64,000 nt of DNA from an uncultured Alphaproteobacteria bacterium (GCA_944393695.1 CALYAY010000005.1:33717-97716); one strand, 5' to 3'; shown: positions 14,983 to 51,758, counted from the stretch's first letter. Notes: generated from the sequence alone by a model not told the origin. A program made the numbers and translations.

Positions 14983-17742
14983 TTAAAACTTGTACTTGGC
15001 GTTAATCAAACCGGTGTGGTCTTCATAGTTATCGCGGAATTTGCCTTCATAACCAAGCGAAAGTTCGACGTTATCGTTAACTTCCGCAGTTACACCCGCG
15101 CCAAACTCCATACCGAAACGGTCAAGGGCTTCGCCGTCAACCGCATAAGCTGAACCGTTAGCCAAAGTTACAACCGAGTTAACGTCGTCGTTAAACAAGT
15201 CGTAAGTTGCGGCAATACGGGCTTCCGGTTTAATCGACATACCATTGTCAAGCTCAAAGGTTTTGTTGACTTTTGCGCCGATAACGCCGGTTAAGATATC
15301 GCTGTCGTTGCCGGAGACTTTCTGGTCGGCAGAATCGGTATAAGCGTCCTGTTTAATATGAACATAACGCAATCCAACTTCCGGCGTAAAGCCAAAGCCT
15401 TTAACCTGCATGTCATAACCGGTCATGGCCTGTAAGCCCAAGGTTTCAACATCATAGTCAGCCTTAACGCCAACCCCGGCAACACTCTTGTCTTCGGAAT
15501 AATCAGACCAGCCGTAGGTGGCAATACCGTTGATATACCAGTTGTTCGGCTTGTATTCACCGTAAACAATCGCGGTATGGGTATCAACATCCGTACTTCT
15601 CATAAAGCCGTCAATATCGGTGTTAGTATAAGCATAACCGGCACCGACTTTGACCGTCCGGCCGATAATTTTTTCAATACCCATGGCAACACCGGCAGAA
15701 TCCGCATCAAAACCTTTGGCTTTGGATGTGTCATCCAGTTCGGAATGATTATACATACCCTGAACCCAGACAGCTGCGTCCGGATTAGTATCACCGGAAG
15801 ACATGCCCTGTGAACCGGTCGAAATTGACCCACCGGTTAAACGGGTTGATACGGCACTAAATACCTGGTTGGCGGTTTCGGTCTGGGTTTTCTGAACCAT
15901 CGGCGCAACTTCAGGAGCTACGGCAGTCAAGGCATCTACATAAGCTTTTTGTGAAGCACTGTCCGTACTGTTAGACAATTGTGCCAGTTTTTCAGCAACT
16001 GCCGCGGCAACCGGGCTGCTGTCGGAAGCGCTTACGCTGTCCCAGGCTTCGGCTGTTGAGGCATTTGAAGTTGTGCCTCCGGCATCCGCAACAATATCGG
16101 AAGCTGTCGTGCCGTTGGCCGTTACCGTATATGTGCCATCACCGTTATCGGCAAAATCATAACGGGAGTTTGAAGTTAAATTGGCGAATTTTCCTTCAAT
16201 TTCAACCGGAGTATCTTCGTCATTAAACAATTTAAGCGTCAGAGGATCATCCCCCGCAGATAAAGCAGCGCTGTTTAAGCTCATATCAAGTGTGGTGCCG
16301 TTTTCGCTGATATTGACATAATTGGCATAGATTTTGCCGTAGGTGTCTTTGTCTGTAACGGTAAATTTCAAAGTCGAATTGTCTTTGAAATGAACACCTT
16401 CGCCAGCAACTTCCTTTTCACCGCCAGAGTGCAATTCATTTGCACCGATGTCAAGCGTAGCTCCTTCACCAACCACAACGCTGGAGGCACCACCGTCAAG
16501 TTCCTTATCATAGGCCAGCGTTCCTTTTTGAATTTCAAAAATATCTAAGCCGCCAATGGTACCGGTTACGGCTTCACTTAAAACGTGGCTGTCTTCAAAT
16601 ATCAGGCTGGCACCTTCAACATTACCGTCGATTTTGGCGTTTGAGTTCTGAAGATGAATTTTGCCGCGGTCATCACCATCAATATTGGCGCTTAAGGTGC
16701 CACCAATGTTAAACTTTGTATCATTATCAGCAACTCTGAGTGTGGCTTTCTGCGCCTGGTCCATATCTTCGGCTGAAACTTTGGCATATAAGGTTGAACC
16801 GGAAGCAATATTAATCTCTGCGCCGTTGAATATATTTATATTCCCGGCAGAAGATATTTCCGCCGAAGAGCCGCTGACATTTATCTTCCCGCCGCTTATA
16901 TTTATGTCGCCCTCATTTTTATAAGTGGTAGAGATTCGAGCTCCGTCTTTCAGGTTAATCTCTCCTCCGCTGATATTAATACTTCCGTTTGAGGCATGAT
17001 ATGGCGATAAATCCAATTCATCTGGATTTAATCCGGCGCTGATAAAATCTTCACGTGAAGCTTCATCTGGATATTTACCAGCTTTCTGATGAAATTCTTC
17101 TTCACTCATAACACTGGTACCGTCTTTTTTGTATAACCAGGAGCTATCATAACCACCGCGTTCAACTTTAGCCATTTCTCCGGTTAAATTAATGGTTCCG
17201 CCGGAAATGTTTATATCGCCGTTTTGACCTTCATGCAAAATACCGCCGTTGTGTATATCTTTTCCACTCTGCCAGATAGCATTTTCCGGTGCTTCTTCAT
17301 TCTCAGGTTTTATACCGCTATAATCCATTGTAATATTAGCATTTCCGCCAATGTTCATATCGGCGTTACCGGTTAATGTAATTTCGCCGCCGTCTTTAAC
17401 TGTAATATCGCCGCCTGTAATATTCATTTCTGCGGCTAATGTATTATATTGTTCATCTTTTCCACTCGCATCAATACTGGCACCGTTTGACAAGGTTATG
17501 AAACCCCCGGTTATAGAAATTTCTTTTTGGTTTGTCCCGTCCGATATTTGCTTAATATCGCCGTCTGCAACAACATTACCGCCAGAAATTGATATATTTC
17601 CTGTCGTCTGGTAATCTTTTTGGTTTTCCATAGTTATTTGCGTGTCCTGATTAATGTTTATATCATCAGAAACTTGTGCATAGGCATTATGGCTGCAAGT
17701 CAGCGCCACCAATGCCGTTGTAATTAAAAGTTTATTTTTCAT
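14983..17742 (-). CDS. Autotransporter adhesin (pertactin-like beta-helix passenger plus C-terminal beta-barrel translocator)
   Basis: Signal peptide MKNKLLITTALVALTCSHNAYAQ (ATG at 17742 with RBS agaggaag). Repeated GG.INISGG.I motifs. C-terminal ~270 aa has alternating beta-strand pattern ending ...INAKYKF. Confidence 0.8.
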   Translation of the reverse strand: MKNKLLITTALVALTCSHNAYAQVSDDININQDTQITMENQKDYQTTGNISISGGNVVADGDIKQISDGTNQKEISITGGFITLSNGASIDASGKDEQYNTLAAEMNITGGDITVKDGGEITLTGNADMNIGGNANITMDYSGIKPENEEAPENAIWQSGKDIHNGGILHEGQNGDINISGGTINLTGEMAKVERGGYDSSWLYKKDGTSVMSEEEFHQKAGKYPDEASREDFISAGLNPDELDLSPYHASNGSINISGGEINLKDGARISTTYKNEGDINISGGKINVSGSSAEISSAGNINIFNGAEINIASGSTLYAKVSAEDMDQAQKATLRVADNDTKFNIGGTLSANIDGDDRGKIHLQNSNAKIDGNVEGASLIFEDSHVLSEAVTGTIGGLDIFEIQKGTLAYDKELDGGASSVVVGEGATLDIGANELHSGGEKEVAGEGVHFKDNSTLKFTVTDKDTYGKIYANYVNISENGTTLDMSLNSAALSAGDDPLTLKLFNDEDTPVEIEGKFANLTSNSRYDFADNGDGTYTVTANGTTASDIVADAGGTTSNASTAEAWDSVSASDSSPVAAAVAEKLAQLSNSTDSASQKAYVDALTAVAPEVAPMVQKTQTETANQVFSAVSTRLTGGSISTGSQGMSSGDTNPDAAVWVQGMYNHSELDDTSKAKGFDADSAGVAMGIEKIIGRTVKVGAGYAYTNTDIDGFMRSTDVDTHTAIVYGEYKPNNWYINGIATYGWSDYSEDKSVAGVGVKADYDVETLGLQAMTGYDMQVKGFGFTPEVGLRYVHIKQDAYTDSADQKVSGNDSDILTGVIGAKVNKTFELDNGMSIKPEARIAATYDLFNDDVNSVVTLANGSAYAVDGEALDRFGMEFGAGVTAEVNDNVELSLGYEGKFRDNYEDHTGLINAKYKF

Positions 17743-18129
17743 ATGATTAAACTTCCTCTTCTTTAATTGCAATTAAAACAAAACCACCTGGTAAGAGGTG
17801 GTCGGAGAGTTCATCAATCATATTGTCTTAAATGATTCTCTTAGCCTTTAAAGTCAAAAAAACTTCTGAACATACGCCAAAAGCTCCCCGACCATAGAAA
17901 CTATGAATCGGGGATATATTTATTGCCTGCCATGATGAGTGGCTGACAATATTACGATGTTATATCCTAACACCGAAGACAATAAGAGCCGATGAAAGCT
18001 CCGCACCATAAAAGTGCTAAATACTGAGTATCCTCAATATCTGTTTTGAGAGTATTAGCTGTTGGTTCGCAAGTCAAGATAAAAATAAAATTTATAATAT
18101 TTCTAACCGGCGGATATTTATCCAAGATA

Positions 18130-19298: not shown

Positions 19299-20123
19299 TT
19301 AGAATTCAAGGACGGGCCGGACCTCGTAGCGGTTAGGCTTATTGATGGTGTCGCTGCCGTACAACCCGTAGTCGTTGCTTAAATTCGAGTACCACGCGCT
19401 GCCGCCACGGTTCTCGGAAGACGACCAGAGGGAGGAACTTCTTCCTAACTGATCACCACCGGCCAATACAAACCCGGCATTAATCGCCGACATATTGTTT
19501 TTAATACTCGTCATAATACCGGCTGCCGGCAGACACCAATCCCCGGCATTAGTACCCTCTGTCTTATACTCATGTGCCGCCCAGGCAGCCGGATAAGTAC
19601 TCTTATTGCCAGCATTAGTAATAAGAATTGTATTGCTGCAACTCTTAACATCAGTTGCCGCCATCTCTGCACTACTCCAGTTGGTCAAAGTTGTAATATC
19701 CGTGCCGTATCCACTCCACGCATAATCTCCTATTTTTTTCAATGCCATGGCCTGACCACCGCCTGTTCCGTCAACATAAACCACCACACCAATCGGGGTT
19801 TTACCACTGATAACCTTACCATAAGAACAACTTATATCAGAATAAAAAATTGAACCTATGGCGCAATCTTTGGTATTACCACCTCCAATACCACCTTCTT
19901 CAATCACTTTTTTGATTTCCGTGATTTCGGTGGTGATTTCATTAATTTTATCTGCTAAGGTGCAGTTCCAGGCATTGCCGAAGGGACACTTAATCCCGCC
20001 TTCGCAGGATGATGAGCTTTCATAGCCCAAACTAGAACAACTCGGCGTCGGGATACATGCGGCATAAACACTTCCCGCACTTATCACCATTACCCCCACA
20101 CTCGCTAATAATATTTTCTTCAT
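19299..20123 (-). CDS. Secreted DUF1566 (Lcl-C-like) domain protein, paralog of C-terminus of 803..2788
   Basis: Signal peptide MKKILLASVGVMVISAGSVYAA. GKTPIGVVVYVD...YPAAWAAHEYKTEGTNAGDWCLPAAG shared with 803..2788. Nucleotide-level similarity is also visible. Confidence 0.7.
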   Translation of the reverse strand: MKKILLASVGVMVISAGSVYAACIPTPSCSSLGYESSSSCEGGIKCPFGNAWNCTLADKINEITTEITEIKKVIEEGGIGGGNTKDCAIGSIFYSDISCSYGKVISGKTPIGVVVYVDGTGGGQAMALKKIGDYAWSGYGTDITTLTNWSSAEMAATDVKSCSNTILITNAGNKSTYPAAWAAHEYKTEGTNAGDWCLPAAGIMTSIKNNMSAINAGFVLAGGDQLGRSSSLWSSSENRGGSAWYSNLSNDYGLYGSDTINKPNRYEVRPVLEF

Positions 20124-20139
20124 AACCTTTCTCCTTATA

Positions 20140-20410
20140 TTAGTTGTTAATAATATTTACCGTTCCCCTTTTTACCTCGCCCTTGAGGGGAGAGGTCGGA
20201 GCGTAAGCTCCGGGTGAGGGTGACAAAATAAACTGTCATCCCTCGTTCAGCGTCAGTCTGAACGTCAAGGGATCTTCCTTGCTGCTCTCTCCCCTTTTAA
20301 AAGGGGAGCCGGAGGGGTCAAATAGCGCCGCTTTATTCATCAGACTTGCATTCGCCATTCCACCCTCACCCTAACCCTCTCCCCTCAAGGGCGAGGGAAT
20401 AAAGAGCAAT
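20140..20410. repeat. REP/RPE-like palindromic mosaic repeat cluster (inverted orientation)
   Basis: Contains the reverse complement of unit 1 (gtcatccctcgttcagcg...aaaaggggagccggaggggtc) plus gggtgagggtg / ccctctcccctcaagggcgaggg palindromes. Confidence 0.8.
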
Positions 20411-20413
20411 CCC

Positions 20414-21508
20414 CTATCCGCCGCAGAAGTCACAATAATCCGCACAATTCGTCGCACAACCGGTGGCATACCATAAGCCCGAGCATTCTTCATACTGGCA
20501 TATGGTGCAGCTCGGACAGGTGGTGTATTCTCCCAAGTTCGGGCAGGCCTTACAATTGTCATACATGGTGGTTGTTCCCGACAAACAAGTCGAGGCTCCG
20601 GCTTCTCCGCCCATGGAGCCGCAGTCCATATATCCATCACACGGGTTGGGTTTTATCTTGTAATGTTCCTGACCGTCACAACCAAGGCAGCTCTCACCAT
20701 CCTGGACATAGCCGTCGGGAATACTCGTATTGTCGTATCCGGCACAAGTGTTGCAACAGGTGCCGTATAAACTGTCATAAGAACATCTGTCATCGCTTAA
20801 TTGTTGGCCGGTGCCGCATTCATCGACATAACCGGGGTTCAATTCCTGACAGGCGCGCTCAGTGTCTTTTTCACAAGAGGCATATTTCCCGTCGCAGGCC
20901 TCTCCCACGCCGTAATACGGAACTTCACAAGTGACATAATTTGAGGGACAGGAAGAAACACATTTTTCAAAATAAGTGCTGTCATAGGGGCAGGTGTTGG
21001 AAGGTTCCTGACCTTCGGGACAGGAGGTTTGGGTATATCCTTCCTGGCGGCAGCGTTCAGCATTGTCCAAATCATAATCATCGCCGTCTCCGGGACCGCC
21101 GGGAGCCCCGTGTCCGTCATCATCGGCATTATTGCCGCTAAACTCATTTCCCGAACAGGCTGAGGTATCGGTTACAAAACAGGTGGCTGCGAGTTGGGGA
21201 AGAGGGGTGTTGTGAAACCCTCCCCAGCCCCTCCCTAAGTTTTTAGGGAGGGGATAGAATAGATAGTTCCCTAAGTCTTTAGGGAGGGAATAGGATAGAT
21301 AGTTCCCTGAGTTTTCAGGGAGAGGATAAAAGGCAGAAGACAACAACATTTCTTCCGGGTGAGAGGTGTGTGTATAAGGTGTGTGGACAAATGTAACCGC
21401 CCCCGGAGTGTTGAGAGATGTTAGATTATGAATTGAAGCCAAACTGCCGCCGGGCATAAGAAACAGCCCGGAAACCGACAGCATTAATGCTTTGGATAAT
21501 TTCATCAT
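20414..21508 (-). CDS. Cysteine-rich secreted protein, paralog of N-terminal half of 803..2788
   Basis: Signal peptide. Near-identical central block (CFVTDT..CSGNEFSGNNADDD...NAERC.QEGYTQTSCPEGQEP.NTCPYDS.YFEKCVSSCPSNYVTCEVPYYGVGE.CDGKYASCEKDTERAC.ELNP). Lacks the DUF1566 domain. Confidence 0.7.
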   Translation of the reverse strand: MMKLSKALMLSVSGLFLMPGGSLASIHNLTSLNTPGAVTFVHTPYTHTSHPEEMLLSSAFYPLPENSGNYLSYSLPKDLGNYLFYPLPKNLGRGWGGFHNTPLPQLAATCFVTDTSACSGNEFSGNNADDDGHGAPGGPGDGDDYDLDNAERCRQEGYTQTSCPEGQEPSNTCPYDSTYFEKCVSSCPSNYVTCEVPYYGVGEACDGKYASCEKDTERACQELNPGYVDECGTGQQLSDDRCSYDSLYGTCCNTCAGYDNTSIPDGYVQDGESCLGCDGQEHYKIKPNPCDGYMDCGSMGGEAGASTCLSGTTTMYDNCKACPNLGEYTTCPSCTICQYEECSGLWYATGCATNCADYCDFCGG

Positions 21509-22475: not shown

Positions 22476-22922
22476 CTATTTCAAATTTTCAACTTTCCGA
22501 AGCAAATCTTCAGGAATTCGCACCGGACGTTTGCGCTTCAGACTTACATAAGCCAATTTAACGTCCAGAGTTGCCAACAATGTTTCGCCCCGGCGGATTT
22601 CCTGTTTCATTTCGGCTCCGGCACCTTTCATTTCCGTTAATTCGCAGGTCACTGTCAGCAAATCATCCAACACTGCCGGCGCTTTATATTCCACACTCAG
22701 GTTGCGTACCATAAATCCGTGCCGGTCATCTTCTTCCAGCGCCGCCTGCTGCTCCATGCCCAGCGCCCGGATAAGCTCCGTCCGCGCCCGCTCGGCAAAT
22801 TTCAGATAATTGGCATAATACACCACTCCGCCGGCATCCGTATCTTCATAATACACCCGGGCCGGAAACACAAAGACCCTGCCTTCAAAACGCCCTGCCG
22901 GCACCGCTACATCATAGTTCAT
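22476..22922 (-). CDS. ybgC: Acyl-CoA thioesterase YbgC (tol-pal-associated 4HBT family)
   Basis: [26 protein letters not shown] motif. ATG at 22922, 5 nt after the ruvB stop. Confidence 0.75.
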
Positions 22923-23997
22923 TTTCTTCTTCCTCAATAACACTCAACAAATCGAACTGCGCCGGTTCCGGGCGGATTCCCCGTTTAATCCGGGGCTTGC
23001 CAAGATATTCGCAGCCCAAATCAGAAATCACGCGTCCCCGCGGCGTCCGCTGTAAAAAACCAAGTTTCAGCAAAAACGGCTCTATCACTTCCTCAATCGT
23101 GTCGCGTTCTTCCGAAAGCGCCGCGGCCAGCGTATCGGCTCCTACCGGCCCGCCGCCATAATTATTCAAGATACAATTCAGATAACGACGGTCAAAAGCA
23201 TCAAGTCCGTAATTATCCACATCCAGACGCCGGAGGGCTTTATCGGCAATCTTGTTATCCACCTCACCGGCTCCGGCCACTGCACCGAAATCGCGTACCC
23301 GACGCAGCAGACGCCCGGCCACACGCGGGGTTCCGCGCGAACGTTTGGCAATTTCCTTTGCTCCGTCCTCCGAAATCGGCATTCCCAGCAGGGAAGCTCC
23401 CCGGATAACTATCTGCATCAATTCTTCCGGAGAATAAAAATCAAGCCGCAACGGAATTCCGAAACGCTCGCGCAAAGGCGTGGACAGCAATCCCGAACGG
23501 GTTGTCGCGCCGACCAGCGTGAACGGCTGCAAATCAATCCGCACCGACCGGGCAGAAGGCCCCTCGCCGATAATCAAATCGAGCTGAAAATCTTCCATTG
23601 CCGAATACAAAACTTCTTCAATTGCCGGATTCAGCCGGTGAATTTCATCAATAAACAGCACATCGTTGCGTTCCAGATTAGTCAGGATGGCGGCCAGGTC
23701 GCCGGATTTGGTAATCATTGGTGCCGAGGTGGCCCGAAAGCCCACACCCAACTCTTTGGAAATAATTGAGGCCAGCGTGGTTTTGCCCAGTCCCGGCGGG
23801 CCGAACAGCAAAACATGATCCAGCGCATCTCCCCGGCTTTTGGCCGCTTCGATAAACACTTTCAGGTTTTCGCACACCTGCCGCTGTCCGACAAACTCAT
23901 CCAGCGAATTCGGACGCAGGCTCACGGGGTTGGCGCTGCCGTTTTCATCTCCGTTTTGTTTTTTGGGGCTTACAATCCGTTCATCATCATTCATCAT
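22912..23997 (-). CDS. ruvB: Holliday junction branch migration ATPase RuvB
   Basis: [13 protein letters not shown]alker A, DEIHRL Walker B, full-length AAA+ RuvB. Confidence 0.95.
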
Positions 23998-24672
23998 TTA
24001 GATTTCTTTCGTCGCAAATTCTTTCAGCGCCAGCCGGATTAATTCCGGGACCCCGACATCGGGATTGTTTTTAAGCGCCAGGTTGACCGCCCGGTAAGCT
24101 TCAATCCGCTGATATCCCAGGTTTACCAAGGCCGAAATCGCATCATCGGTTTTGGAGCTGTCTTCATCGGCCTGCAGCTCGACCACGGCATCTTCATAGG
24201 CTTCTGTTTCTGTTCCGGCAGTCCCTTCAGTCACATTGTTCAGATCTGCTTTCACGCTTGCCTCCATCGGAATGGTTACAATCTTATCTTTTAACTCAGT
24301 CACAATACGCGCGGCCAGTTTCGGCCCCACACCGGCGGCACGGGTAAATGAGGCTTTGTCCTGCGCCGATACGGCCTGGGCCAGCTGATTGGGTGATAAT
24401 ACCGATAAAATAGCCAGACATACTTTGGCGCCCACGCCCTGCACTTTTGTCAGGGTCAGAAACCATTCTTTTTCCCAGGCATCGGAAAAACCAAAAAGCG
24501 AGATGCTGTCTTCCCGGACAATGGTTTCAATCAGCAATACGGCCGTTCCTCCCCGGTTCAGGCGCGATAATGTCTTGGCCGACGCAGAGACCAGATAGCC
24601 GACGCCGTTTACATCCAGAATACAGTAATCTTCGCCTATCGTATCGACAATCCCGCGCAATTTTGCAATCAT
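23998..24672 (-). CDS. ruvA: Holliday junction DNA helicase RuvA
   Basis: MIAKLRGIVD...GVGYLV N-terminal OB fold, HhH region, C-terminal domain. Abuts ruvB. Confidence 0.9.
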   Translation of the reverse strand: MIAKLRGIVDTIGEDYCILDVNGVGYLVSASAKTLSRLNRGGTAVLLIETIVREDSISLFGFSDAWEKEWFLTLTKVQGVGAKVCLAILSVLSPNQLAQAVSAQDKASFTRAAGVGPKLAARIVTELKDKIVTIPMEASVKADLNNVTEGTAGTETEAYEDAVVELQADEDSSKTDDAISALVNLGYQRIEAYRAVNLALKNNPDVGVPELIRLALKEFATKEI

Positions 24673-26860: not shown

Positions 26861-27148
26861 ATGAACAAGCTGAAATTGATAAAAACCATTGTGGTGGTGC
26901 TGACTTTTTTGCTGGTGTTCGGCAGCCTTATGGCACTGACCGCGATTTACCGTCAGATTAAAAGCAGCAAACAACCGGAACCAACAGGAATATCCGACCT
27001 GAACGAACCGCAGGGAAGCCGCATTAACTCTATGTTAGAATATAAGGGCTATTTATATATTCTGGTAAAAGACGGCGGGGAAAGCGACCGGATTGTGGTG
27101 TTTGACACGCAAAAGGGACAGCCGGTCTCAAAAATCAAACTCAACTGA
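26861..27148 (+). CDS. Small membrane-anchored protein (95 aa)
   Basis: Single N-terminal TM segment (IVVVLTFLLVFGSLMALTAIY). Precedes the 27163 operon by 14 nt. Confidence 0.5.
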   Translation: MNKLKLIKTIVVVLTFLLVFGSLMALTAIYRQIKSSKQPEPTGISDLNEPQGSRINSMLEYKGYLYILVKDGGESDRIVVFDTQKGQPVSKIKLN

Positions 27149-27162
27149 AGAGGAAAACACTC

Positions 27163-28086
27163 ATGGCAGAAGAATTGGAAACAAAAGAAAATGACGACGA
27201 AGTTTTTGAAAAACTGCTGAATGAGTTTATTACAACGCAGCTGAAAGATGTGGACGACGTTGAAAAGAGTCAGCCGGAACCCCAACCACGGCAAGAAGAA
27301 GACGTGAGCATTTTTGCCAATCATGACGAGCAAAAAGCCGCCGATGACGAATGGGAAGGGGATGAGGAAGAGGAGGAAGAAGACAATCCGGAACTGGCCA
27401 TGCTGAAAAGCAATGAAAAAGCTTTATATAAAGCTTATGCCAATTTTCAGGAAGCTATCGACATGCTGGCAGAGGAAATCAAGGCCAAACCGGTAAAATT
27501 CAAAATTGTTCCGCAGTCTTTGTATCCGAACTATAAGCCCAGCACCGGTAAAATGATTGCCGAAGATATTTCGTCCGGCTGGGAGCTGCTGATTAAGGCC
27601 GAACCGGAAATGGTGGGAAGAATCTCGCCCAACGGCAGCGACGAAGAACTGCTGGCTTTTGCCGAAGAAAGCGAAAATGACGCCGTGCAATTTGCCTTAA
27701 TCTCATATGTGGAAATCCTGATTGAAATGGAAGGCTGCGAAATCGTTTATAAAGAGCGCCTGCTGAAATATGAGCAAAAACGCCTGGAAAGAGAAATTTA
27801 TGAAGAACATGAAAAAAGAATCAGGCGCATTAACCGCTATATTGAAGCCATCAAAGCCAAAAAATTTCCGGTGGATGCGGAAAAACTGGTGAAAAATTAT
27901 TTCAAAACCGCGGCCAAAGACGCCGAAGGGGCGTTTCAGGTGCTGACGCATAATCCGGCCATATTCTCACCGATAGAATTCAGCAAAATCAAGCCCCGGC
28001 TGTTCGGACTGCTGAAAGTCAAGCCCAGCGACGGCATTCGTATTAATCATTCCCTGGGAGAATTTTTGCGGAAATTAAAGGTTTAG
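27163..28086 (+). CDS. Acidic hypothetical protein (307 aa, Glu/Asp-rich, poly-E tract)
   Basis: EDVSIFANHDEQKAADDEWEGDEEEEEEDNPE. Predicted coiled-coil C-terminal half. RBS gaggaaaacactcATG. Confidence 0.6.
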   Translation: MAEELETKENDDEVFEKLLNEFITTQLKDVDDVEKSQPEPQPRQEEDVSIFANHDEQKAADDEWEGDEEEEEEDNPELAMLKSNEKALYKAYANFQEAIDMLAEEIKAKPVKFKIVPQSLYPNYKPSTGKMIAEDISSGWELLIKAEPEMVGRISPNGSDEELLAFAEESENDAVQFALISYVEILIEMEGCEIVYKERLLKYEQKRLEREIYEEHEKRIRRINRYIEAIKAKKFPVDAEKLVKNYFKTAAKDAEGAFQVLTHNPAIFSPIEFSKIKPRLFGLLKVKPSDGIRINHSLGEFLRKLKV

Positions 28087-28165
28087 ATATTTTTAGAAAA
28101 ATATGGACAAAATATGTTTTTAATGATAGAATGAGTTAAACAGCAAAAAACCGGCAGGTGGAAAG

Positions 28166-29620
28166 ATGAATGAAAATAACGACGAAATGGTAATTGACGA
28201 AAACAGCAACCAGGATACACGGGAAAAAGAAGTGACTGTTGACGAGGCGCTGAAGGAAACAACCGTCAATGAAGAAATGAAGGAAACGACCGTCAACGAA
28301 GAGGCGAAAGAAACAACCTTTAATGAAAACGCCAAAGAGACAACTTTTAACGAACATCCGGCAGAAAACCGCGTTCCGGAAAATTCCGACGAGCAAGATA
28401 ATCTTGATGATGAAAAACAAGGCGATATCGAAAATCTGGAAGACGACAGGATTAATCCTCCGGACGAGGAAGGAAAAGGGCCGTTTGAAGAAGGCGATAT
28501 TATTGCTTATATGTATAAGAACTGGCTGATTGCCGGGATGAATTATGCCTGGGTATCAGCGGCAAAACGTATTAAAGCGGAGTCATATAAAAGGAAATAT
28601 CAAAAAAACCGCCGAAAAGCCGAGAAAAACAAGGATAAAGAAGTTAAACGCTATGATACGTATAAAATGCGGGATACTTATGAGAAAAAAGCAAATACCG
28701 AAATGGAGAAGAAGGAAGCTCAGATTATCGGGAACCGCAGCCTGATTAACCTGGCGGAAAAGGTGCGCGAGGGCAAATATGAAGAGGCCGGGCTGAGTCC
28801 GGAAATGCAGGATGTTGTCAAAAATATGCCCAAGAAGCAATTTGATGAAATGTTTGCCGAGAAAAACGTGAAAAAATATCAGAAAAACATTAATGACACC
28901 CTGATTTCGGCGAACCAGTTTGCTCATATGTACGCCCAGTTGTCCATGCTGGAAACCAAAGCCAAAGACGCCAATGACCCGATGTTTCAAAACGGAAACG
29001 ACCCGGCTTATCAGGCTCAGGTGAAGGAAGGCCTGATTCTTTATGCCAAAGCCATGGGCAGAGAAGCCGAGCAAGGCGGCGATACAAGAAAATTCAGCGG
29101 CAAGTTATTAGATCAGGCAAAGAATGCTCTGGATGTTACCCGTAAAAATATAGAAAAAGGGAATTTTAACGGTTATCACAAAAAACGCCGTTTCAGAAAA
29201 GACATTATCGGCGAACGCAAGGAAAACAAAGAGTTTGACAAACTGCTCAAAACGCTCAACGGGATTGATACCAACGAGCCTGCGGCCAATATGTTTGAAG
29301 CAATTATCCGCAGCCAGGCTTTTGACAAAGAAAAAGCGGCCCAATTGGTTGAAAATCAAAATCAGGAGCGAATTCTGGCGGCCAGACGCCAACGCAACGA
29401 CGACAGACGGCGGCGGCTGCAGGAAGCTAAAGACAGGATGGATCCGACCCGCAGGGCTCAGCGGGAAGCCAAAAACGCCGAAAGAGAGGCCAAGCGCCAG
29501 AAAAGAATTAAGAATCTGGAAAATCCGGATTATGTCATGACAGATTCCAAAGGCAATAAGAATCAAGAAGAGACCAATAAGTGGCGCCAGTTTTACAGAG
29601 ACCGGGGAATGATGAGGTAA
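28166..29620 (+). CDS. Highly charged hypothetical protein with tandem 11-aa repeats (KETTVNEEM x4)
   Basis: 484 aa, K/E/R-rich, C-terminal RRQR..RRRRLQEAKDR basic stretch. Translationally coupled (1-nt gap) to 29622. Confidence 0.6.
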   Translation: MNENNDEMVIDENSNQDTREKEVTVDEALKETTVNEEMKETTVNEEAKETTFNENAKETTFNEHPAENRVPENSDEQDNLDDEKQGDIENLEDDRINPPDEEGKGPFEEGDIIAYMYKNWLIAGMNYAWVSAAKRIKAESYKRKYQKNRRKAEKNKDKEVKRYDTYKMRDTYEKKANTEMEKKEAQIIGNRSLINLAEKVREGKYEEAGLSPEMQDVVKNMPKKQFDEMFAEKNVKKYQKNINDTLISANQFAHMYAQLSMLETKAKDANDPMFQNGNDPAYQAQVKEGLILYAKAMGREAEQGGDTRKFSGKLLDQAKNALDVTRKNIEKGNFNGYHKKRRFRKDIIGERKENKEFDKLLKTLNGIDTNEPAANMFEAIIRSQAFDKEKAAQLVENQNQERILAARRQRNDDRRRRLQEAKDRMDPTRRAQREAKNAEREAKRQKRIKNLENPDYVMTDSKGNKNQEETNKWRQFYRDRGMMR

Positions 29621-29621
29621 G

Positions 29622-30113
29622 ATGGCGAAATTCGGCAAAATTCTGAAGGCAATTATCGTGGGTTCGTTATGGACCTGCGTTTTGCTGTTTGCCGGCAACA
29701 AAATTACCCTGTTTTTCTGGAAATTTAATCTGCTCAGTGCTGCCGACTGGCAATTGATTGCCGGCTTTTGGAATCGGGGCGGCGTGATTAAAACCGCATC
29801 CGATTATCTGTTTGTATCCACCCTGTTTCTGATTCCGATTATATGGATTGGTGGCTGGAAAAGGCTGATGAAGGTGAAAATCGGGGCTTTGCTGCTGCGG
29901 CCTTTTGAGGCATACAGCGACTGGCAGGCAAAAAAATATGAAAACAATTCGCGAATCGTGTTGAAAAATATGGGAACAACTTCGGTAAAAGAAACACCGA
30001 AAGAAAAAATCAAATCCGACCTCAAAAAAATAGAAAAACAGATTGATAACAATAAAGAAACCGCTAAAATAAGAGAAAATATCGGCGAAAAAATCTCCCG
30101 TCTGAAAAAATAA
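29622..30113 (+). CDS. Two-TM membrane protein (163 aa), paralogous to N-terminus of 30172..31497
   Basis: TM1 - FWKFNLLSAADWQLIAGFW - TM2 (LFLIPIIWIGGW). Aligns with NWHFDIFQSAHWHHAWTLW - TM - LTFIPLWLSGW of the next protein. Confidence 0.6.
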   Translation: MAKFGKILKAIIVGSLWTCVLLFAGNKITLFFWKFNLLSAADWQLIAGFWNRGGVIKTASDYLFVSTLFLIPIIWIGGWKRLMKVKIGALLLRPFEAYSDWQAKKYENNSRIVLKNMGTTSVKETPKEKIKSDLKKIEKQIDNNKETAKIRENIGEKISRLKK

Positions 30114-30171
30114 ACAGTTATTAACCATATTTGTGTTATTATCGGAAAAAATTTATTAAGGATTAAATGAT

Positions 30172-31497
30172 TTGAAACCCTTGATTGTGTTAACCAGAAT
30201 TATGACCGTCGGTCTGATATGGAGTGTTTTCTTCATTGAAAGCATCAGGGTTATCATGCTTAAAAACTGGCATTTTGACATTTTTCAGTCGGCACACTGG
30301 CATCATGCCTGGACATTGTGGTTGTCGGGATGGGTTATCAATACCCCGAAGGAATGGGCGTTTGTTCTGATTATCCTGACTTTTATCCCGCTGTGGCTGT
30401 CGGGATGGGCGGGGCTGAGCCTGATTAAATGGGAAAGACTGCTCGCCAGAATTATGCGCTGGCCGCTGGAAATGCTGCGGCAATTTTTTTTCCGTCCGGT
30501 AAAAATTATTGCAAAGTCAACGACAAGCGGCCCGGTTAAAAAGAAAAAATCTTATAAAGAAGTGCGGCCGAGAAGCCTGCGGCTGCCTCTTGACGACAGA
30601 CCGGAACCGGTCAACCAGTCAAAGCTCATCAGTGCCAATTCGCGCACGGTTCCCCTGACACCGGCAGTGGCGGCGGCCGAAACACCCAGTCCGAGCGCCA
30701 TGGCGGCGGCTTCGACACTTAAGCCTCAGGCCGAACCCAAGAGTTTTGAACATTCGCTGTTTAAAATAGACAGCAGTGAGGATGAGGATTTTGATTTTAA
30801 CTTTGACGAATTTGATTTGGAGAAAGATTCCCAAGAGACAAAAAAAGCCGCTCCCGAGCCCGAGCCAAAACGTTCGCTGACGGCCGGAAACCGGCCCCCT
30901 GCCCCGGCAGCACGTAAAGAAAACAATTCACGCGAGGCCGTTAAAGGCAAAAAGAACGGGAACACGCCGAAAAACAATAGTCAACCGCGGGCAAACAGCG
31001 GAAATTCCATTCTGGATGTCATCCGGCAGCATAAATACGAAACAATCAACGGAGCCACTATCCGCAACACTCTGATTGATTTTATCGGCGTGGCCAAAAA
31101 TCAGATTATCCTCTGTCTGATTGACAGGGAACCGGGCGACTGGCTGGCAGACGAAGAGCGTTTTAACGATGAAGAGCCTTTATGGTTTTCAGAGAGCAGC
31201 CACCGGATTTCGCCGGTGCGGAAGGTGGATATTGCCCGAAAGGTTTTGGAAGAAAAAATTGCCGAAGCCGGTTTGAACTTTACGGTCAAGCCTTATGTTA
31301 TTATATCCATCGGCAATATCATCAATGCCGAGGATATGTTTGAAATATGGGACGGGCTGGGGGTTAACGTGGCCCGCATCGACCGGGGAACGCCCAAAGA
31401 AATAAAATTGTTTGCCAAGGCACTGGACGATGCCGAAGCCCCGATCAGCCGCGATGATTTTGAAAAAGTCAAAAAACTTATCAGAAACAATGCTTAA
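30172..31497 (+). CDS. Membrane protein (441 aa): N-terminal 2-TM module, Pro/Ala-rich acidic linker, C-terminal ~190-aa globular domain
   Basis: TTG start with aagga RBS. Architecture is reminiscent of T4CP-partner proteins such as DotM/IcmP, but this is unproven. Confidence 0.55.
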   Translation: MKPLIVLTRIMTVGLIWSVFFIESIRVIMLKNWHFDIFQSAHWHHAWTLWLSGWVINTPKEWAFVLIILTFIPLWLSGWAGLSLIKWERLLARIMRWPLEMLRQFFFRPVKIIAKSTTSGPVKKKKSYKEVRPRSLRLPLDDRPEPVNQSKLISANSRTVPLTPAVAAAETPSPSAMAAASTLKPQAEPKSFEHSLFKIDSSEDEDFDFNFDEFDLEKDSQETKKAAPEPEPKRSLTAGNRPPAPAARKENNSREAVKGKKNGNTPKNNSQPRANSGNSILDVIRQHKYETINGATIRNTLIDFIGVAKNQIILCLIDREPGDWLADEERFNDEEPLWFSESSHRISPVRKVDIARKVLEEKIAEAGLNFTVKPYVIISIGNIINAEDMFEIWDGLGVNVARIDRGTPKEIKLFAKALDDAEAPISRDDFEKVKKLIRNNA

Positions 31498-31518
31498 GCC
31501 AGGTGAGAGGAAATTACG

Positions 31519-33726
31519 ATGAGCGAGAAAAGAGGCGAAGAATGGGAAGAATATGACAAGGCCGTGCAATGGATGGTGATTACGGTCATTATCTCGCTGG
31601 TTTTGACAATCTTTCTGGCGGTGATGGCTCTGCCGCTGGGATATCTGGTGGGCAGCGGCATATCAAAAGACAGCATCAGCACCGTATCGCGCTTTGTGCA
31701 GGCGGTGTTTGAAAATCCGTCATATCTGACCTCACGCTACTGGCACTGGTTTAATCAGCTGTCCAATTATATCGGTCCGTTTTCGTTCAGTCTGTGGCTG
31801 CCGATTTTGCCATTCATCACCCTGCCGCTCGGGCTGATTTTGGGAATGCTGACCAATCCGTATCGGTTTCAGTCAAATATTCACGGTTCGGCACGACTGG
31901 CCACGGAAAAAGACATCAAGAAAATGCCTTTGCTGGGTTTTGACGGATTTTGCCAGGTGGTGGGAAAATTTAACGGCAAACTGCTAATGCTCAAGGAAAC
32001 GCTGGCAACCCTGTGCTGCGCGCCTCCGGGAACCGGTAAAACGGCGGGGGTGGTTATTCCGACGATTTTTAACTCCCGCGGACTGAGTATTATCGTAAAC
32101 GACCCCAAGCCCGAATTGTGTTACAGCACGACGGGCGCCCGGGCAAAGGAAGGCCCGGTGTTTGTCATTAACTGGGGGGCGGAAGACAACCCGGCGGAGG
32201 GAATCTATTATCCCAGCTGGAACCCGCTGTCGCCGAATGCATTGCCCATGCCGGGGCCGGACCGGGACATGTATGTTGATTCCATGTGCAATATTCTGGT
32301 GGAAGATCCGAAAGGCGGCGCCGACCCGCACTGGTCAAAAACCGGCCGTTCGGCTTTGACCGGATTTATTCACTTTGTTTCGTTCAAATGCGAAAAAGCC
32401 CGGGCCAATGATTATTTTATCGGCCGTATTTATGAGGGAAAGCTTGATGACGAAGACAAGCGCGTGCTGGAAAGCTATTATCTGGAAATGCACGACCCGA
32501 TGGCGGCCAGAGCCATTCAGGATTTGCGCAACGGGACGCTGACCATTGATAATTATCTGCCAATCGGCAGCTGGGCTCTGCTTCCGGAAAAATGGATCGG
32601 GCATGAACCTTGTCTGGCAATGATTTTGGAGTGGATTACCGAAGCGCAGATTAAACAATCGGAAGAAATCAAACGCCGGCTGGACGAAGGCGACCAGATG
32701 GCGGCAATGGCCGACCCGATGCGCAATATGCTGGAAGAGGCTATCGAGGAAGCCCGAAAATTCGGCTATTCGCAACGCTGCATCGTGGAATTGAGCCAGT
32801 TGAGCGCCATGCCGGACAAAGAAAGAGGTTCGGTTCTGTCAACCGGTTTGTCGGGTATCGGTATTTTCAAAAACTCGGCGGTGGTTTCCCGAACCAGTTT
32901 TTCTGATTTGCAGTTTAAGGATTTGCGCGGCATGAAAGACCCGGTGACGGGAGAATGGAAACCGATTTCGGTTTATCTGTCGGTTAACCAGGTTGATGCC
33001 CGCGCCCTGGGTATCATCAGCGGAACATTTATTGAGCTGATGTCTTCTTACCTGATTGCCAATCCGCCCAAGTTTAAAAATAAAACCGACGGGGTGATGG
33101 GACCTTTTCCGGCATTGTTCGTGCTGGACGAGTTTCCGCAGATGCCTAAGCTGAAAGCCATTATCGACGGACCGGCGGTGGGCCGCGGACAAAAGGTTTC
33201 ATACCTGCTTATCGGACAAGATCTGGGGCAAATCTCGGGAAAATACGGAAAAGATGATTTGGAAACCGTGATTTCAACGACGGCCTGTAAGGTTATTTTG
33301 TCGCAGAACAACGAAGTGACCGCCCAGCGCTTTTCCAAAATGATCGGCAATAAGACCGTGCAGACAACCTCTTTTTCAAAACAAGAGGGACTGAGCAAAG
33401 GAAGCAATCCTTTTTCGAAAAACGTTTCTTATCAGCTGCAGGGGACTTCGGTTATCAGTACGACCCAGCTGCTGAGCCTGCCGATGCTGAAGCAGGTTGT
33501 ACTGATGCAGGGCTCAATCGACCGACCGATTATGGCAGACTCGCCCCGGTGGTATCTGGATAAAAAGATGAAGGCCCTGGCTGCGCTGCCGCCGGCACCC
33601 AATGTTCCCGACTGGATTGTGGCACAGCGTGAGGATATTAACGAGGATATGCTCTCCAAGCTGGGAATCGAGTATTCGCCCGATGAAGACGATTTTGAAC
33701 CGGACGAAGACGAAAACGATGCCTAA
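31519..33726 (+). CDS. Type IV secretion coupling protein (VirD4/TraG/DotL family ATPase)
   Basis: Two N-terminal TM helices. Walker A CAPPGTGKTAGVVIPTIF (compare VirD4 APTRSGKGVGLVIP). Walker B region FVLDEFPQMPKL...LLIGQDLGQI. Acidic C-terminal tail EDDFEPDEDENDA. Confidence 0.8.
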   Translation: MSEKRGEEWEEYDKAVQWMVITVIISLVLTIFLAVMALPLGYLVGSGISKDSISTVSRFVQAVFENPSYLTSRYWHWFNQLSNYIGPFSFSLWLPILPFITLPLGLILGMLTNPYRFQSNIHGSARLATEKDIKKMPLLGFDGFCQVVGKFNGKLLMLKETLATLCCAPPGTGKTAGVVIPTIFNSRGLSIIVNDPKPELCYSTTGARAKEGPVFVINWGAEDNPAEGIYYPSWNPLSPNALPMPGPDRDMYVDSMCNILVEDPKGGADPHWSKTGRSALTGFIHFVSFKCEKARANDYFIGRIYEGKLDDEDKRVLESYYLEMHDPMAARAIQDLRNGTLTIDNYLPIGSWALLPEKWIGHEPCLAMILEWITEAQIKQSEEIKRRLDEGDQMAAMADPMRNMLEEAIEEARKFGYSQRCIVELSQLSAMPDKERGSVLSTGLSGIGIFKNSAVVSRTSFSDLQFKDLRGMKDPVTGEWKPISVYLSVNQVDARALGIISGTFIELMSSYLIANPPKFKNKTDGVMGPFPALFVLDEFPQMPKLKAIIDGPAVGRGQKVSYLLIGQDLGQISGKYGKDDLETVISTTACKVILSQNNEVTAQRFSKMIGNKTVQTTSFSKQEGLSKGSNPFSKNVSYQLQGTSVISTTQLLSLPMLKQVVLMQGSIDRPIMADSPRWYLDKKMKALAALPPAPNVPDWIVAQREDINEDMLSKLGIEYSPDEDDFEPDEDENDA

Positions 33727-33733
33727 AAGGACA

Positions 33734-33765
33734 AAGGCCTGTTTCATGAAAGCAGGCCTTTTGTT
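33734..33765 (+). terminator. Rho-independent terminator after T4CP gene
   Basis: aaaggcctg-tttcatgaaag-caggccttt followed by tgtt. Confidence 0.6.
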
Positions 33766-33837
33766 ATCCGTAAAATTTTAGATGTTTTTTAATTTTATAT
33801 CCGTTATAATCATTCATTAATAAAATAAGGGAAAGAC

Positions 33838-33993
33838 ATGGAAAAACAAGAAACATCCAATAAACAAAAAAAACGCAGCCAGATCCGTATTGAAAAAGAA
33901 GCGGCCGCCCTGCAGCGCAACCTGATTAAACGCAAAAAACAGGTGGCGGAACGGGCCAGACTGAAAGCGGAAAAGCAAAAAGAATCGAACTAA
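33838..33993 (+). CDS. Candidate small basic protein (51 aa, K/R-rich, helical)
   Basis: aaggga RBS 7 nt upstream of ATG. Below the ORF-track length cutoff. Sits between the T4CP terminator and murA. Confidence 0.3.
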   Translation: MEKQETSNKQKKRSQIRIEKEAAALQRNLIKRKKQVAERARLKAEKQKESN

Positions 33994-45806: not shown

Positions 45807-47432
45807 TTATACATTCCGCAGACGATAAAGCCCGGCTTTATTGTTTGTTCTTTCAAGTTTTTTTTCGCCCAGGAATTCGAATTTCGGCGCATTGTCGCCA
45901 AGTTTTTCATAAATGCCGCCGTCGGTAAGGATTTCTCCGTCATAGGTATGGTCAAATAAATCCTGAATATAGTTTTTTTTGTCAGGCAATTCATTTCCCT
46001 GCCCTTCAACCAGGCAAAGACGTTCGGCAACAATCAGGTTTTCGTCGGAAAGTTCATCGATGTAGGTGTCGGCATCTTTCAAAAATTCCTGTCCGAAAAT
46101 CAATGCCTTCCCTACATCGGAAAACTGAATGCCGATAAATTCGGGCAAAGAGGTTTCTTGGGGAATGCCGCTGTATTTTCCGGTGAGGTTTTGAATTATA
46201 TTATTCATGGATGAACGGATTTCCTGCTCGTATTCTTCACTATTTTTGGCGGTTCCGTTGTAAAGGACGCGGATTAAGATATTTAACAATACGCTGATAT
46301 GCACCGGGGCGGTATTTTTTTCTTCTTTTTCGGGAAGAACTGCCGCTTTCGGACTTTCGTAGCGGTGAGAAATGTTATTCAGCACGCTCCAACGGTAAAA
46401 GGCCAGACGGACAAAGTTTTTATCCAGCGTTTTTTCGGAAAGCAGCTGAGACATGGCGGAAGCTCCTACACCCACCAAGAACACGGCTTCCTTAGTGTCT
46501 TTATAGGTGCGTTTGGCATCATAAAATGCAGCAACATCAACATGATCGGAGCCGTCGATTATGGAAAAAGCTTCATATAAAAGCGAATTGGCCTGGGCAA
46601 TGTTCAGACGACTGTGCAAAGCCAGCTGCATGCAGCCGCCGTATACCAACAGGCGTAACCCCAGACGGTTAAAATCATCCGACAAGGACAGAGTGCTGTC
46701 CAAACAGGCAATCAGGTTGCTTAAATAGTTAACGATATAACGTTTATATTCCAATGAGGCTTCGGGAAAAGACGGAACCACCCCTTCCTGATAATCATCA
46801 TTAAGATTATAGAGGTTAATCAGTTTTTCAGCTTTATTAAAATAACGACGTTCGGCCTGAGGCGTAATCTTCGGCCGGCGGCGGAAACCGAAAACCTGCC
46901 ACGGAATTTTTTTCAAAATCAACGGGGTGGAGACGATGATGAACAAACTGAAGAAAAACAGAAACAATAAGGTTTTGGTGGCTTCTTCATTGAAAAAGTC
47001 TTCAAAAAGCGGGGCGCTCAGATTTACGATAATATTGGCAAACAAAAGGCTGAACAAAATAATCAGTATCAATTTGGCCAAGGCTATTGCGATGTTGTGC
47101 GGGGAATTGTAGCTTTCGTCAATCGCATTAAAAATATTATTGCCGCCGGCAGAAAAATTTTCACCGCTGGTGAAAAAATTGTTATCTTTTTCAGAATGCT
47201 GTCTGGCGGCTTCCTTTTTTTTGTTGGGCAGGCTGACGTATTCTATTGTTTCCTGATAATTGTTGTCCAGGACATCAAATTTTTCGCGGATGAGTTTGAC
47301 GGCAATATTGTCGTGTTCTTTTTCCCGGGTATATTTTATGGCTGCATCCCGCTGATCCGCAGGAAAGCGCTCTTCCAGCTTCCAGCCCGTGCCTCTGTCG
47401 GTATAAACTTCATAGTGTGTGATATCAACCAT
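45807..47432 (-). CDS. Hypothetical membrane protein (541 aa)
   Basis: Central cluster of TM helices (IIILFSLLFANIIVNL..., LFLFFFSLFIIVSTPLIL). Confidence 0.5.
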   Translation of the reverse strand: MVDITHYEVYTDRGTGWKLEERFPADQRDAAIKYTREKEHDNIAVKLIREKFDVLDNNYQETIEYVSLPNKKKEAARQHSEKDNNFFTSGENFSAGGNNIFNAIDESYNSPHNIAIALAKLILIILFSLLFANIIVNLSAPLFEDFFNEEATKTLLFLFFFSLFIIVSTPLILKKIPWQVFGFRRRPKITPQAERRYFNKAEKLINLYNLNDDYQEGVVPSFPEASLEYKRYIVNYLSNLIACLDSTLSLSDDFNRLGLRLLVYGGCMQLALHSRLNIAQANSLLYEAFSIIDGSDHVDVAAFYDAKRTYKDTKEAVFLVGVGASAMSQLLSEKTLDKNFVRLAFYRWSVLNNISHRYESPKAAVLPEKEEKNTAPVHISVLLNILIRVLYNGTAKNSEEYEQEIRSSMNNIIQNLTGKYSGIPQETSLPEFIGIQFSDVGKALIFGQEFLKDADTYIDELSDENLIVAERLCLVEGQGNELPDKKNYIQDLFDHTYDGEILTDGGIYEKLGDNAPKFEFLGEKKLERTNNKAGLYRLRNV

Positions 47433-51537: not shown

Positions 51538-51758
51538 GGCATAGAGAAGAGCTGTCCGGTGCGTAGTTCCCGCAAGTCTTCCGAGCCAACATTATCTTTA
51601 AGGGAACTGTCACTGAGCAAATCGTGGTTTGTTTATATGGTGCCCACCTATTTGACAGCGGTTCGTGTGGAATGCACTAGATACGGCTGTGACGGCCCTT
51701 CTCGCCAGTTTTTAATTTTAACATGACGAAAATCCCCGGTTCGGGATTTTCGTGTTTT
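51538..51758 (+). ncRNA. ssrS: Candidate 6S RNA (SsrS) with intrinsic terminator
   Basis: Immediately downstream of zapA (conserved zapA-ssrS synteny). 5' gagaagagc pairs with 3' gcccttctc (closing stem). Terminator hairpin aaaatccc-cggttc-gggatttt plus T-run at 51729..51758. Confidence 0.5.

Follow-up and report, generated by a model that had tools for sequence, protein, structure and literature searches.

This work concerns an operon that ends in the gene for a type IV coupling protein (T4CP) and occupies positions 27163-33726 of a 64,000-nucleotide stretch of DNA from an uncultured Alphaproteobacteria bacterium (GCA_944393695.1, CALYAY010000005.1:33717-97716; this whole stretch is hereafter called the window, and positions are counted from its first letter). 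Coupling proteins are understood almost wholly as gatekeepers inside conjugative or effector type IV secretion system (T4SS) loci. Here a VirD4-type T4CP is a fixed core gene, conserved above the heat-shock sigma factor, in a large uncultured lineage of the human and animal gut, and in well over a hundred species-level lineages no T4SS genes are found in its vicinity. The gene directly 5' of it encodes g441, its dedicated partner in the membrane, which has co-evolved with it, adopts a restriction-endonuclease fold and carries a conserved acidic triad. What is known in this operon is the T4CP family, and what is new is its unlinked core-gene status, an insert in its all-alpha domain and its nuclease-fold membrane partner. 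We tentatively read the operon, with somewhat less than even confidence, as a chromosomally fixed, vertically inherited T4CP module of VirB/VirD4 (rvh-like) ancestry, DNA-transfer-and-replication (Dtr)-like, with a membrane-tethered and nickase-like partner.

Five tightly packed genes on the forward strand were recovered exactly where a first-pass annotation of the window had placed them, namely g307 (27163-28086, 307 aa), g484 (28166-29620, 484 aa), g163 (29622-30113, 163 aa, starting 1 nt past the g484 stop), g441 (30172-31497, 441 aa, TTG start) and the T4CP gene (31519-33726, 735 aa), with intergenic gaps of 79, 1, 58 and 21 nt. The same annotation took the last gene for a T4CP and allowed that its product might prove a degenerate ATPase. 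Hidden Markov model (HMM) searches show an intact, real VirD4-type membrane ATPase, which matches the Pfam families T4SS-DNA_transf (1.5e-57, 196 bits, cut-off 20), TraG-D_C (3.4e-23, 82 bits, cut-off 22) and TrwB_AAD_bind (2.3e-16, 60 bits, cut-off 20.5; accessions PF02534, PF12696 and PF10412) and has both Walker motifs intact: Walker A CAPPGTGKTAGVVIP (CAPPGTGKT), with an invariant K174, and Walker B LFVLDEF. As in VirD4, TrwB and Cagβ, a two-helix transmembrane (TM) anchor (hydrophobic segments 13-49 and 88-114) precedes a RecA-like nucleotide-binding domain (NBD) with an inserted all-alpha domain, and the chain ends in an acidic C-terminal tail. The protein differs from those T4CPs in being a fixed core gene, in its unlinked setting, in its scores against equivalog models and in a clade-specific insert of about 60 aa within the all-alpha domain (residues 291-350, ANDYF...ESYY...DNYxPIGSW). 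Indeed, it lies below every NCBIfam equivalog cut-off (VirD4, IncP TraG, Ti TraG, F TraD and CD1115; best score 141 vs 250 bits) and reaches 119 bits against the VirD4 model PRK13897, whose cut-off is 728. A single-sequence phmmer search of the PDB returned nothing; the matches came from the family profile alone, for which the Helicobacter pylori protein Cag5/Cagβ is the best solved T4CP relative (6.7e-13), ahead of TrwB (3.3e-4) and DotL (4.6e-4).

When one genome per GTDB species was scanned, the T4CP turned up in at least 588 species genomes, and the best 80 of these 588 relatives were compared in detail. In line with the host-associated source proposed in the first-pass annotation, all 80 are Alphaproteobacteria metagenome-assembled genomes (MAGs) from gut, rumen or faeces, including Candidatus Scatocola, which NCBI places in Rhodospirillales, and their T4CPs are 76-91% identical to that of the window. 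Close homologues are listed under 'Azospirillum sp. CAG:260' or as Alphaproteobacteria MAGs, and an identical T4CP occurs, with identical synteny, on many gut-metagenome contigs. The 68 loci with enough 5' sequence for a synteny comparison share a common order, rpoH and rluD (both on the opposite strand), DUF6476, g307, a large variable protein, g163, g441 and T4CP, so that the operon is present in close relatives. The median identity to the window protein is 80% for the T4CP, above both RpoH (74%) and RluD (61%), and then falls to 51% for g441, 44% for g307 and for the DUF6476 protein, 35% for g163 and 28% for g484, which is often undetectable. The most conserved parts of the T4CP (84-87%) are its NBD and the segment 206-470. 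In gut and rumen Alphaproteobacteria of the "Azospirillum sp. CAG" type, the operon is a core module that is inherited vertically and kept by strong purifying selection; it is not a mobile element. A decaying remnant of an integrated conjugative element would suit the conjugative ancestry of the T4CP, whose closest plasmid homologues (33-37% identity) lie within full VirB clusters. This origin was nevertheless rejected as hardly credible: the motifs are all intact, identity and synteny hold over 80 species, and no integrase, tRNA junction, repeat boundary or GC anomaly was found at the operon.

Pfam searches of the large open reading frames (ORFs), tblastn with the complete VirB set and VirB HMMs were all negative for VirB and Dot/Icm T4SS genes, relaxases and pilins in the 64-kb window, which upholds the earlier statement that no T4SS genes lie nearby. 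Over the window and 173 loci together (174 sequences, 2.6 Mb), tblastn and HMM searches for VirB2, VirB3, VirB4, VirB6, VirB8, VirB9, VirB10 and VirB11 found VirB genes in a single metagenomic locus, L111, which is described below; likewise, about 125 related loci, L111 apart, have no VirB, Dot/Icm or relaxase gene in the 10 kb to either side of the operon. Context look-ups recovered virB8-9-10-11-virD4 clusters around lower-scoring T4CP relatives and around the closest plasmid homologue (33% identical), and the method therefore detects T4SS genes where they are present.

The membrane partner g441 belongs to a family of 934 members with zero annotation. A g441-like gene lies directly 5' of the T4CP gene in 79 of the 80 species loci, as well as in each of the 45 loci longer than 6 kb among 80 further loci from a metagenome scan seeded with the g441 family; the T4CPs of these long loci are 49-85% identical to the window's, and those of both sets together 49-91%. 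The claim of a dedicated membrane partner is thus well founded. The protein had been described as a TM hairpin, an acidic linker and a globular C-domain. Its hairpin (residues 1-116, Trp-rich and conserved, with AlphaFold2 helices at 2-33 and 59-82) and its cytoplasmic C-domain (279-441) are as described; the disordered, variable linker of about 160 aa is not simply acidic, and carries a basic KKKKSYKE-RPR patch and a Pro/Ala-rich stretch besides an acidic-aromatic FDFNFDEFD patch. In the AlphaFold2 model of the C-domain most 10-residue blocks have a predicted local confidence (pLDDT) of 85-93, and an invariant 30-residue loop, GDWLADEERFNDEEPLWFSESSHRISPVRK, lies near 50. The predicted order of elements is alpha-beta-beta-beta-[loop]-alpha-beta-alpha-beta, which holds the core alpha-beta-beta-beta-alpha-beta of the PD-(D/E)xK restriction-endonuclease fold; two methods agree on this fold, and a weak match to Pfam NERD was also seen. 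Three residues, D303 (beta2), D318 and E320 (end of beta3), are invariant in 69 of 69 species, and position 282 (helix 1) is D or E in 68 of the 69. They follow the PD-(D/E)xK pattern with Glu at the Lys position, a DEE variant like that of BamHI and MOB_C, and on the predicted model they would fall at the canonical active-site positions.

This fold bears on two other explanations of the operon. In the first-pass annotation, g441 was compared to DotM/IcmP, whose gene lies next to dotL/icmO in type IVB systems, and the operon would then encode a type IVB-like DotL/DotM complex recognising Glu-rich signals. The match to the Legionella DotL-DotM-DotN coupling complex is a superficial one: in both systems a gene for a TM-hairpin protein with a cytoplasmic domain lies directly 5' of the T4CP gene (here after a 21-nt gap), a dedicated-partner role is presumed, and here the neighbouring proteins are acidic. 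The likeness is an architectural analogy only, since there is no homology and the fold is another one; Pfam and NCBIfam searches gave no match to the DotM/IcmP, DotN or IcmS/W families, a counterpart of LvgA was likewise not found, the T4CP profile is much nearer to Cagβ (7e-13) than to DotL (5e-4), and the T4SS-linked relatives are of VirB type. DotM/DotL homology was rejected on the g441 fold and the T4CP profile, and we regard such a complex as very improbable. Pairings of an ATPase with a PD-(D/E)xK protein are common in defence systems, and an anti-plasmid or anti-phage system, in which an ATPase of the FtsK/HerA superfamily feeds invading DNA to a membrane-tethered nuclease, would fit the structural neighbours of g441, which include the nucleases Can2, Card1, Cdn1 and Shedu, and the hypervariability of g484. 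Defence was also rejected, as scarcely more probable than the DotL/DotM complex: none of six operon proteins (the five above and the DUF6476 protein) matched a PADLOC model at E <= 0.1, and the operon, rather than being sporadic, is a core feature of fixed position and normal GC, conserved above RpoH and lying outside variable islands.

Searches of Pfam, NCBIfam and PADLOC assigned none of the four proteins encoded 5' of the T4CP gene (g307, g484, g163 and g441) to a family. In the first two, the poly-E tract and the KETTVNEE repeats reported earlier were confirmed. The soluble and acidic g307 (pI 4.7) comprises an N-terminal DDEFExLLxxFI helix, a disordered acidic linker with the poly-E tract, encoded by a GAA-rich array at 27354-27383, and a conserved all-alpha bundle (~80-307), for which a fold search returned generic helical bundles only and a PDB profile search nothing. 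No TM segment is found in g484, of which 20% of the residues are acidic and 20% basic; its 9-aa KETTVNEE repeat is encoded by a 27-nt x 2.9 array at 28251-28327. A positional orthologue (a large ORF of 427-730 aa) occurs in every species, with a mean column identity of 13% and, as sole conserved element, the motif FKExDIIxYMYxxWLLAGAxW (window aa ~107-130). The third, g163, is a small inner-membrane protein present in 79 of the 80 loci, with two TM-like segments forming a Trp-rich hairpin and a basic tail of about 70 aa. Its hairpin is paralogous to the N-terminus of g441 (BLASTP E=1e-9), and g163 is a truncated g441 duplicate, because its counterpart gene in L111 is a full-length, diverged g441 paralogue.

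The metagenomic loci suggest how the operon was built. It appears to have grown stepwise, from a g441-T4CP pair through the gain of the TM paralogue and then of g307 and the variable protein to its position beside rluD. In seven loci of simpler lineages a ribbon-helix-helix (RHH) gene (Pfam RHH_4) lies immediately 5' of the g441-like gene (L089:8489-8767; also L101, L102, L104, L105, L106 and L129), and a T4CP relative at 54% identity follows an RHH_4 gene and a true g441 homologue. RHH is the typical fold of relaxosome auxiliary proteins (PMC12857230), so that loci in which RHH, nuclease fold and T4CP follow one another recall a Dtr or mobilisation module.

Locus L111 carries a T4CP 64% identical to the window's, with the ARANDY insert and intact Walker motifs, in an operon of the order g441 paralogue, g441-like gene, T4CP. 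Located 3.6 kb from this operon, with housekeeping genes between, are virB9, virB8 and a second virB8 (L111:2059-5282, reverse strand), in a region that is chromosomal (IF-2, DEAD-box helicase, ABC transporter). Its VirB9 combines CagX with a C-terminal SPOR (peptidoglycan-binding) domain, and a large TM-plus-repeat ORF at the virB10 position runs past the end of the locus. The description of the window T4CP as an orphan accordingly holds as local unlinkage and may overstate the case, given that this relative has the same partner genes. A scattered and duplicated T4SS gene layout like that of L111 is known from the rvh systems of Rickettsiales, in which the T4SS genes are likewise chromosomal, vertically inherited and dispersed among housekeeping genes, with virB8 duplicated. 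In rvh systems rvhD4 stays beside rvhB8-B11, whereas the window T4CP lies in its own operon with novel partners and falls far short of PRK13897, as given above. On the 3' side of the L111 T4CP (L111:13527-15014, forward strand) are an unannotated PQ-rich protein of 349 aa and a YrhA-family protein of 144 aa, possibly an effector/immunity-like pair.

These proteins also enter a second account of the operon, as a protein-effector platform in which g441 is an adaptor whose catalysis is irrelevant, g307 a chaperone or adaptor and g484 a translocated effector recognised by its one conserved motif, with the T4SS encoded elsewhere. This account keeps the functional idea of the first-pass annotation while dropping homology to DotM. 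The extremely fast evolution of g484, which yet retains one short motif as secreted effectors with a signal do, the acidic and helical character of g307, shared with many secretion chaperones, the two proteins that come after the T4CP in L111, and the Fic, Sel1-repeat and autotransporter proteins encoded in the same genome would all suit such a platform. Indirectly, so would the finding of a pentapeptide-repeat protein (PRP) among the RvhD4-interacting proteins of Rickettsia typhi (PMC11077975), which fits a view of the 5'-encoded proteins as T4CP-binding clients. Against it, the invariance of the g441 acidic triad in 69 species argues for a retained metal or active site over a mere scaffold, RHH, nuclease fold and T4CP are arranged as in a DNA-processing module, no effector domain was recognised in g484 with Pfam or NCBIfam, and no T4SS is demonstrated in the source genome within the 64-kb window searched. 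Such a platform seems to us rather unlikely.

More distant relatives place the T4CP within a wider family. An exhaustive homologue search at E <= 1e-30 gave 266 representative clusters, and in a neighbour-joining tree of 103 tips the unlinked T4CPs group in a clan of 39, of which 36 carry the ~60-aa insert; the 64 tips that fall outside this clan all lack the insert motif. Among the relatives, those 36-46% identical are encoded in virB8-11-virD4 clusters. One virB-linked T4CP, P0247 (44% identical), forms together with three insert-less T4CPs the sister subgroup of the window subgroup. The idea that the orphan T4CPs are a clean clade apart from T4SS-linked ones was consequently dropped, since P0247 falls inside the clan and L111 has virB genes nearby. 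P0247 itself (L097:4578-8087) carries an intein (Hom_end_hint) within its Walker A motif. At 28-43% identity a different arrangement is found, in which T4CPs in unlinked, core-chromosome settings each lie directly 3' of a PRP gene of 335-437 aa (L087, L090, L091, L092 and L093; the T4CP is at about 10001 in L087 and L091-L093 and at 8426 in L090). Synteny is kept within sub-lineages, as pepN-PRP-T4CP in both L090 and L092 and as T4CP-MgsA-...-AsmA-ATP12 in both L093 and L096. DUF6476 is absent from the distant relatives L087-L093, and HMMs of g307, g163, DUF6476 and g484 found no match beside distant T4CPs except for the partner gene of L089, which matches the g441 HMM strongly and that of g163 weakly. 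Most PRP-type T4CPs lack the Walker-B glutamate (DD, DN or DG instead), whereas the window subgroup is canonical; this suggests a non-motor role for the PRP-paired proteins.

Genes for recombination recur near these T4CPs. They are ruvAB in the window (22912-24672, reverse strand), ruvB-ybgC (L088:7650-9500), after which a T4CP relative at 48% identity from a 'Rickettsiales' MAG is found, and MgsA/RarA (L093:12425-13738; L096:2720-4069). Ancestral synteny or chance could account for such neighbours.

The family thus outlined opens another possibility, a stand-alone, domesticated T4CP machine in a clade without a T4SS channel, with a housekeeping task at the inner membrane. This might be to translocate or clear DNA or to hand over something else at the cost of ATP, much as FtsK or HerA-nuclease pairs do. 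The T4CP and its BamHI/MOB_C-like nuclease-fold partner would then be an essential-grade inner-membrane DNA-handling machine within a wider, undescribed family of insert-bearing T4CPs, a proposal that we find doubtful; equally doubtful, as part of it, is that the other, PRP-paired branch has lost ATP hydrolysis. The lack of T4SS genes within 64 kb here and within ±10 kb in about 125 loci would be explained, as would a T4CP conserved above RpoH and RluD at a synteny fixed beside rpoH-rluD, and the core-chromosome contexts of the insert-bearing clan, with pairing to PRPs of a DNA-mimic fold. The loss of the Walker-B glutamate from most PRP-type T4CPs of the clan likewise points to functions other than pumping substrates into a channel, and the recombination genes nearby could be added, these being weak and possibly chance associations. 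However, L111 is a close relative with the same partner genes and T4SS genes nearby, the window subgroup retains canonical Walker motifs and has a virB-linked sister subgroup, and export from a Gram-negative cell would still require an outer-membrane route. For the clade as a whole we consider such a machine improbable.

The reading that we favour likens the operon more to a conjugative Dtr module than to a type IVB effector receptor, as follows. The T4CP would form a hexamer in the inner membrane, and the Trp-rich TM hairpins of g441 and of its truncated paralogue g163 would place these two proteins beside it. The invariant acidic-aromatic loop of g441 would dock on the T4CP, possibly at the clade's own 60-aa insert in the all-alpha domain, and the tethered nuclease-fold domain would bind and possibly nick DNA and pass it to the ATPase without being transferred itself, a handover comparable to that of the non-covalent MOB_C and MOB_H relaxases. 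The acidic helical bundle g307 and the hypervariable g484 may act as adaptors or species-specific accessory proteins. We incline to the view that output runs via T4SS channel genes scattered elsewhere in the genome, rather than through the module alone; a T4SS elsewhere was judged the likelier case because of L111 and of the virB-linked sister group.

Several observations weigh against this scheme. No VirB gene, relaxase gene or repeat like those of an origin of transfer (oriT) was found in the window or, L111 apart, in ±10 kb around about 125 related loci, and to this must be added a conservation above RpoH, which is unusual for a DNA-transfer function. In the intergenic regions the search for oriT-like repeats found a terminator-like hairpin and short, weak AT-rich repeats only, and tblastn of g441 against 72,556 plasmids, among them carriers of MOB_C relaxases, gave no match at E <= 0.01. 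The g441 C-domain is acidic (pI 4.8) and as such not ideally suited to DNA binding, g441 has no winged-helix N-domain such as TraX carries, and the clade of the window itself is without the RHH gene. We know of no characterised relaxase that is membrane-anchored, whereas g441 is. Finally, we infer the active-site placement of the triad, because its residues were positioned from predicted secondary structure, without superposed coordinates.

Two known systems may nevertheless serve as precedents for the Dtr-like module, by analogy and with the same tentative standing as the reading itself. The MOB_C relaxases, such as pAD1 TraX and CloDF13 MobC, belong to the PD-(D/E)xK superfamily and form no covalent DNA intermediate (PMC12857230), and have an all-acidic DEE motif and a BamHI-like structure (PMC6736028). 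In the gonococcal genetic island a membrane-associated, non-covalent relaxase is clustered with a TraD-type T4CP and a small inner-membrane protein, and the function is DNA release, not plasmid transfer; this chromosomal TraI-TraD-Yaa layout parallels that of g441, the T4CP and g163 (PMC6736028). The gonococcal cluster differs in that TraI, of MOB_H, is an HD/3H enzyme with an amphipathic helix where g441 has a PD-(D/E)xK domain with a TM hairpin, and in that its T4CP is of the TraD/F type and lies within a complete T4SS island. With the MOB_C modules (CloDF13 MobC and MobB, the latter being the T4CP, and pAD1 TraX) g441 shares the fold, an all-acidic motif (DEE vs D...D-x-E) and a place beside the T4CP, a resemblance that is not proof of membership. 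It differs from them in its TM hairpin, in the missing winged-helix N-domain, in showing no plasmid similarity and no oriT, and in being chromosomal and vertically inherited.

Neither the operon nor its accessory families nor the PRP-T4CP pairs were described in the literature that we searched. The operon brings four or five protein families without annotation. If g441 is a non-covalent nickase, it would represent a new way of processing DNA ahead of type IV secretion, as a membrane-anchored equivalent of the MOB_C and MOB_H relaxases, and could indicate donation or secretion of chromosomal DNA in abundant gut bacteria. If instead these genomes have no T4SS, this would be the first coupling protein recruited to a secretion-independent function, a new role outside type IV secretion. 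Either way the g441, g307 and g163 families and the 60-aa insert of the T4CP are defined, and the sister PRP/T4CP pairs are uncovered in other Alphaproteobacteria.

At its 5' end the operon probably has a further first and sixth member, of uncertain membership. The gene for the DUF6476 protein (26861-27148, forward strand, 95 aa; Pfam DUF6476 at 1.6e-7) ends 14 nt 5' of g307, holds the same position in about 60 of the 68 species loci at 34-55% identity, and encodes one N-terminal TM helix and a small beta-rich domain. The probable 3' end is a terminator-like hairpin on the forward strand (33733-33761), which begins 7 nt 3' of the T4CP stop and consists of an inverted repeat, AAAGGCCTG...CAGGCCTTT, with 12-nt arms of 92% complementarity followed by TTGTT. 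We infer its role as a terminator from this sequence, since a consensus terminator scan left it unflagged; promoter and terminator scans were at chance level. Past the hairpin the region (33733-33993) turns AT-rich, with a weak tandem repeat of 17 nt, and includes a lysine/arginine-rich ORF of 51 aa (33838-33993) conserved within the species only.

As the first-pass annotation had proposed, both flanks are core chromosome, with ruvAB, rpoH and rluD to the left of the operon and murA, sufE, sucCD and a gene for an Fe-S assembly protein to its right; in the related loci rpoH and rluD lie on the opposite strand. Several large ORFs (274-661 aa) without a Pfam match at 1e-5, at 803-2788 (reverse strand), 12336-13949 (forward), 45807-47432 (reverse) and 19299-21508 (reverse), are uncharacterised proteins of the lineage. 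Between 56000 and 64000 the GC content drops from about 0.47-0.50 to 0.36-0.42 and several glycosyltransferases are encoded; this may be a horizontally acquired surface-polysaccharide region. Genes of a host-interaction type are those for an autotransporter of 929 aa (14983-17772, reverse strand), a Sel1-repeat protein (52563-53831, reverse strand) and a Fic/DOC protein with a winged-helix domain (62694-63671, forward strand), and 6S RNA (SsrS; Rfam RF00013, 69 bits) is encoded at 51546-51702 on the forward strand.

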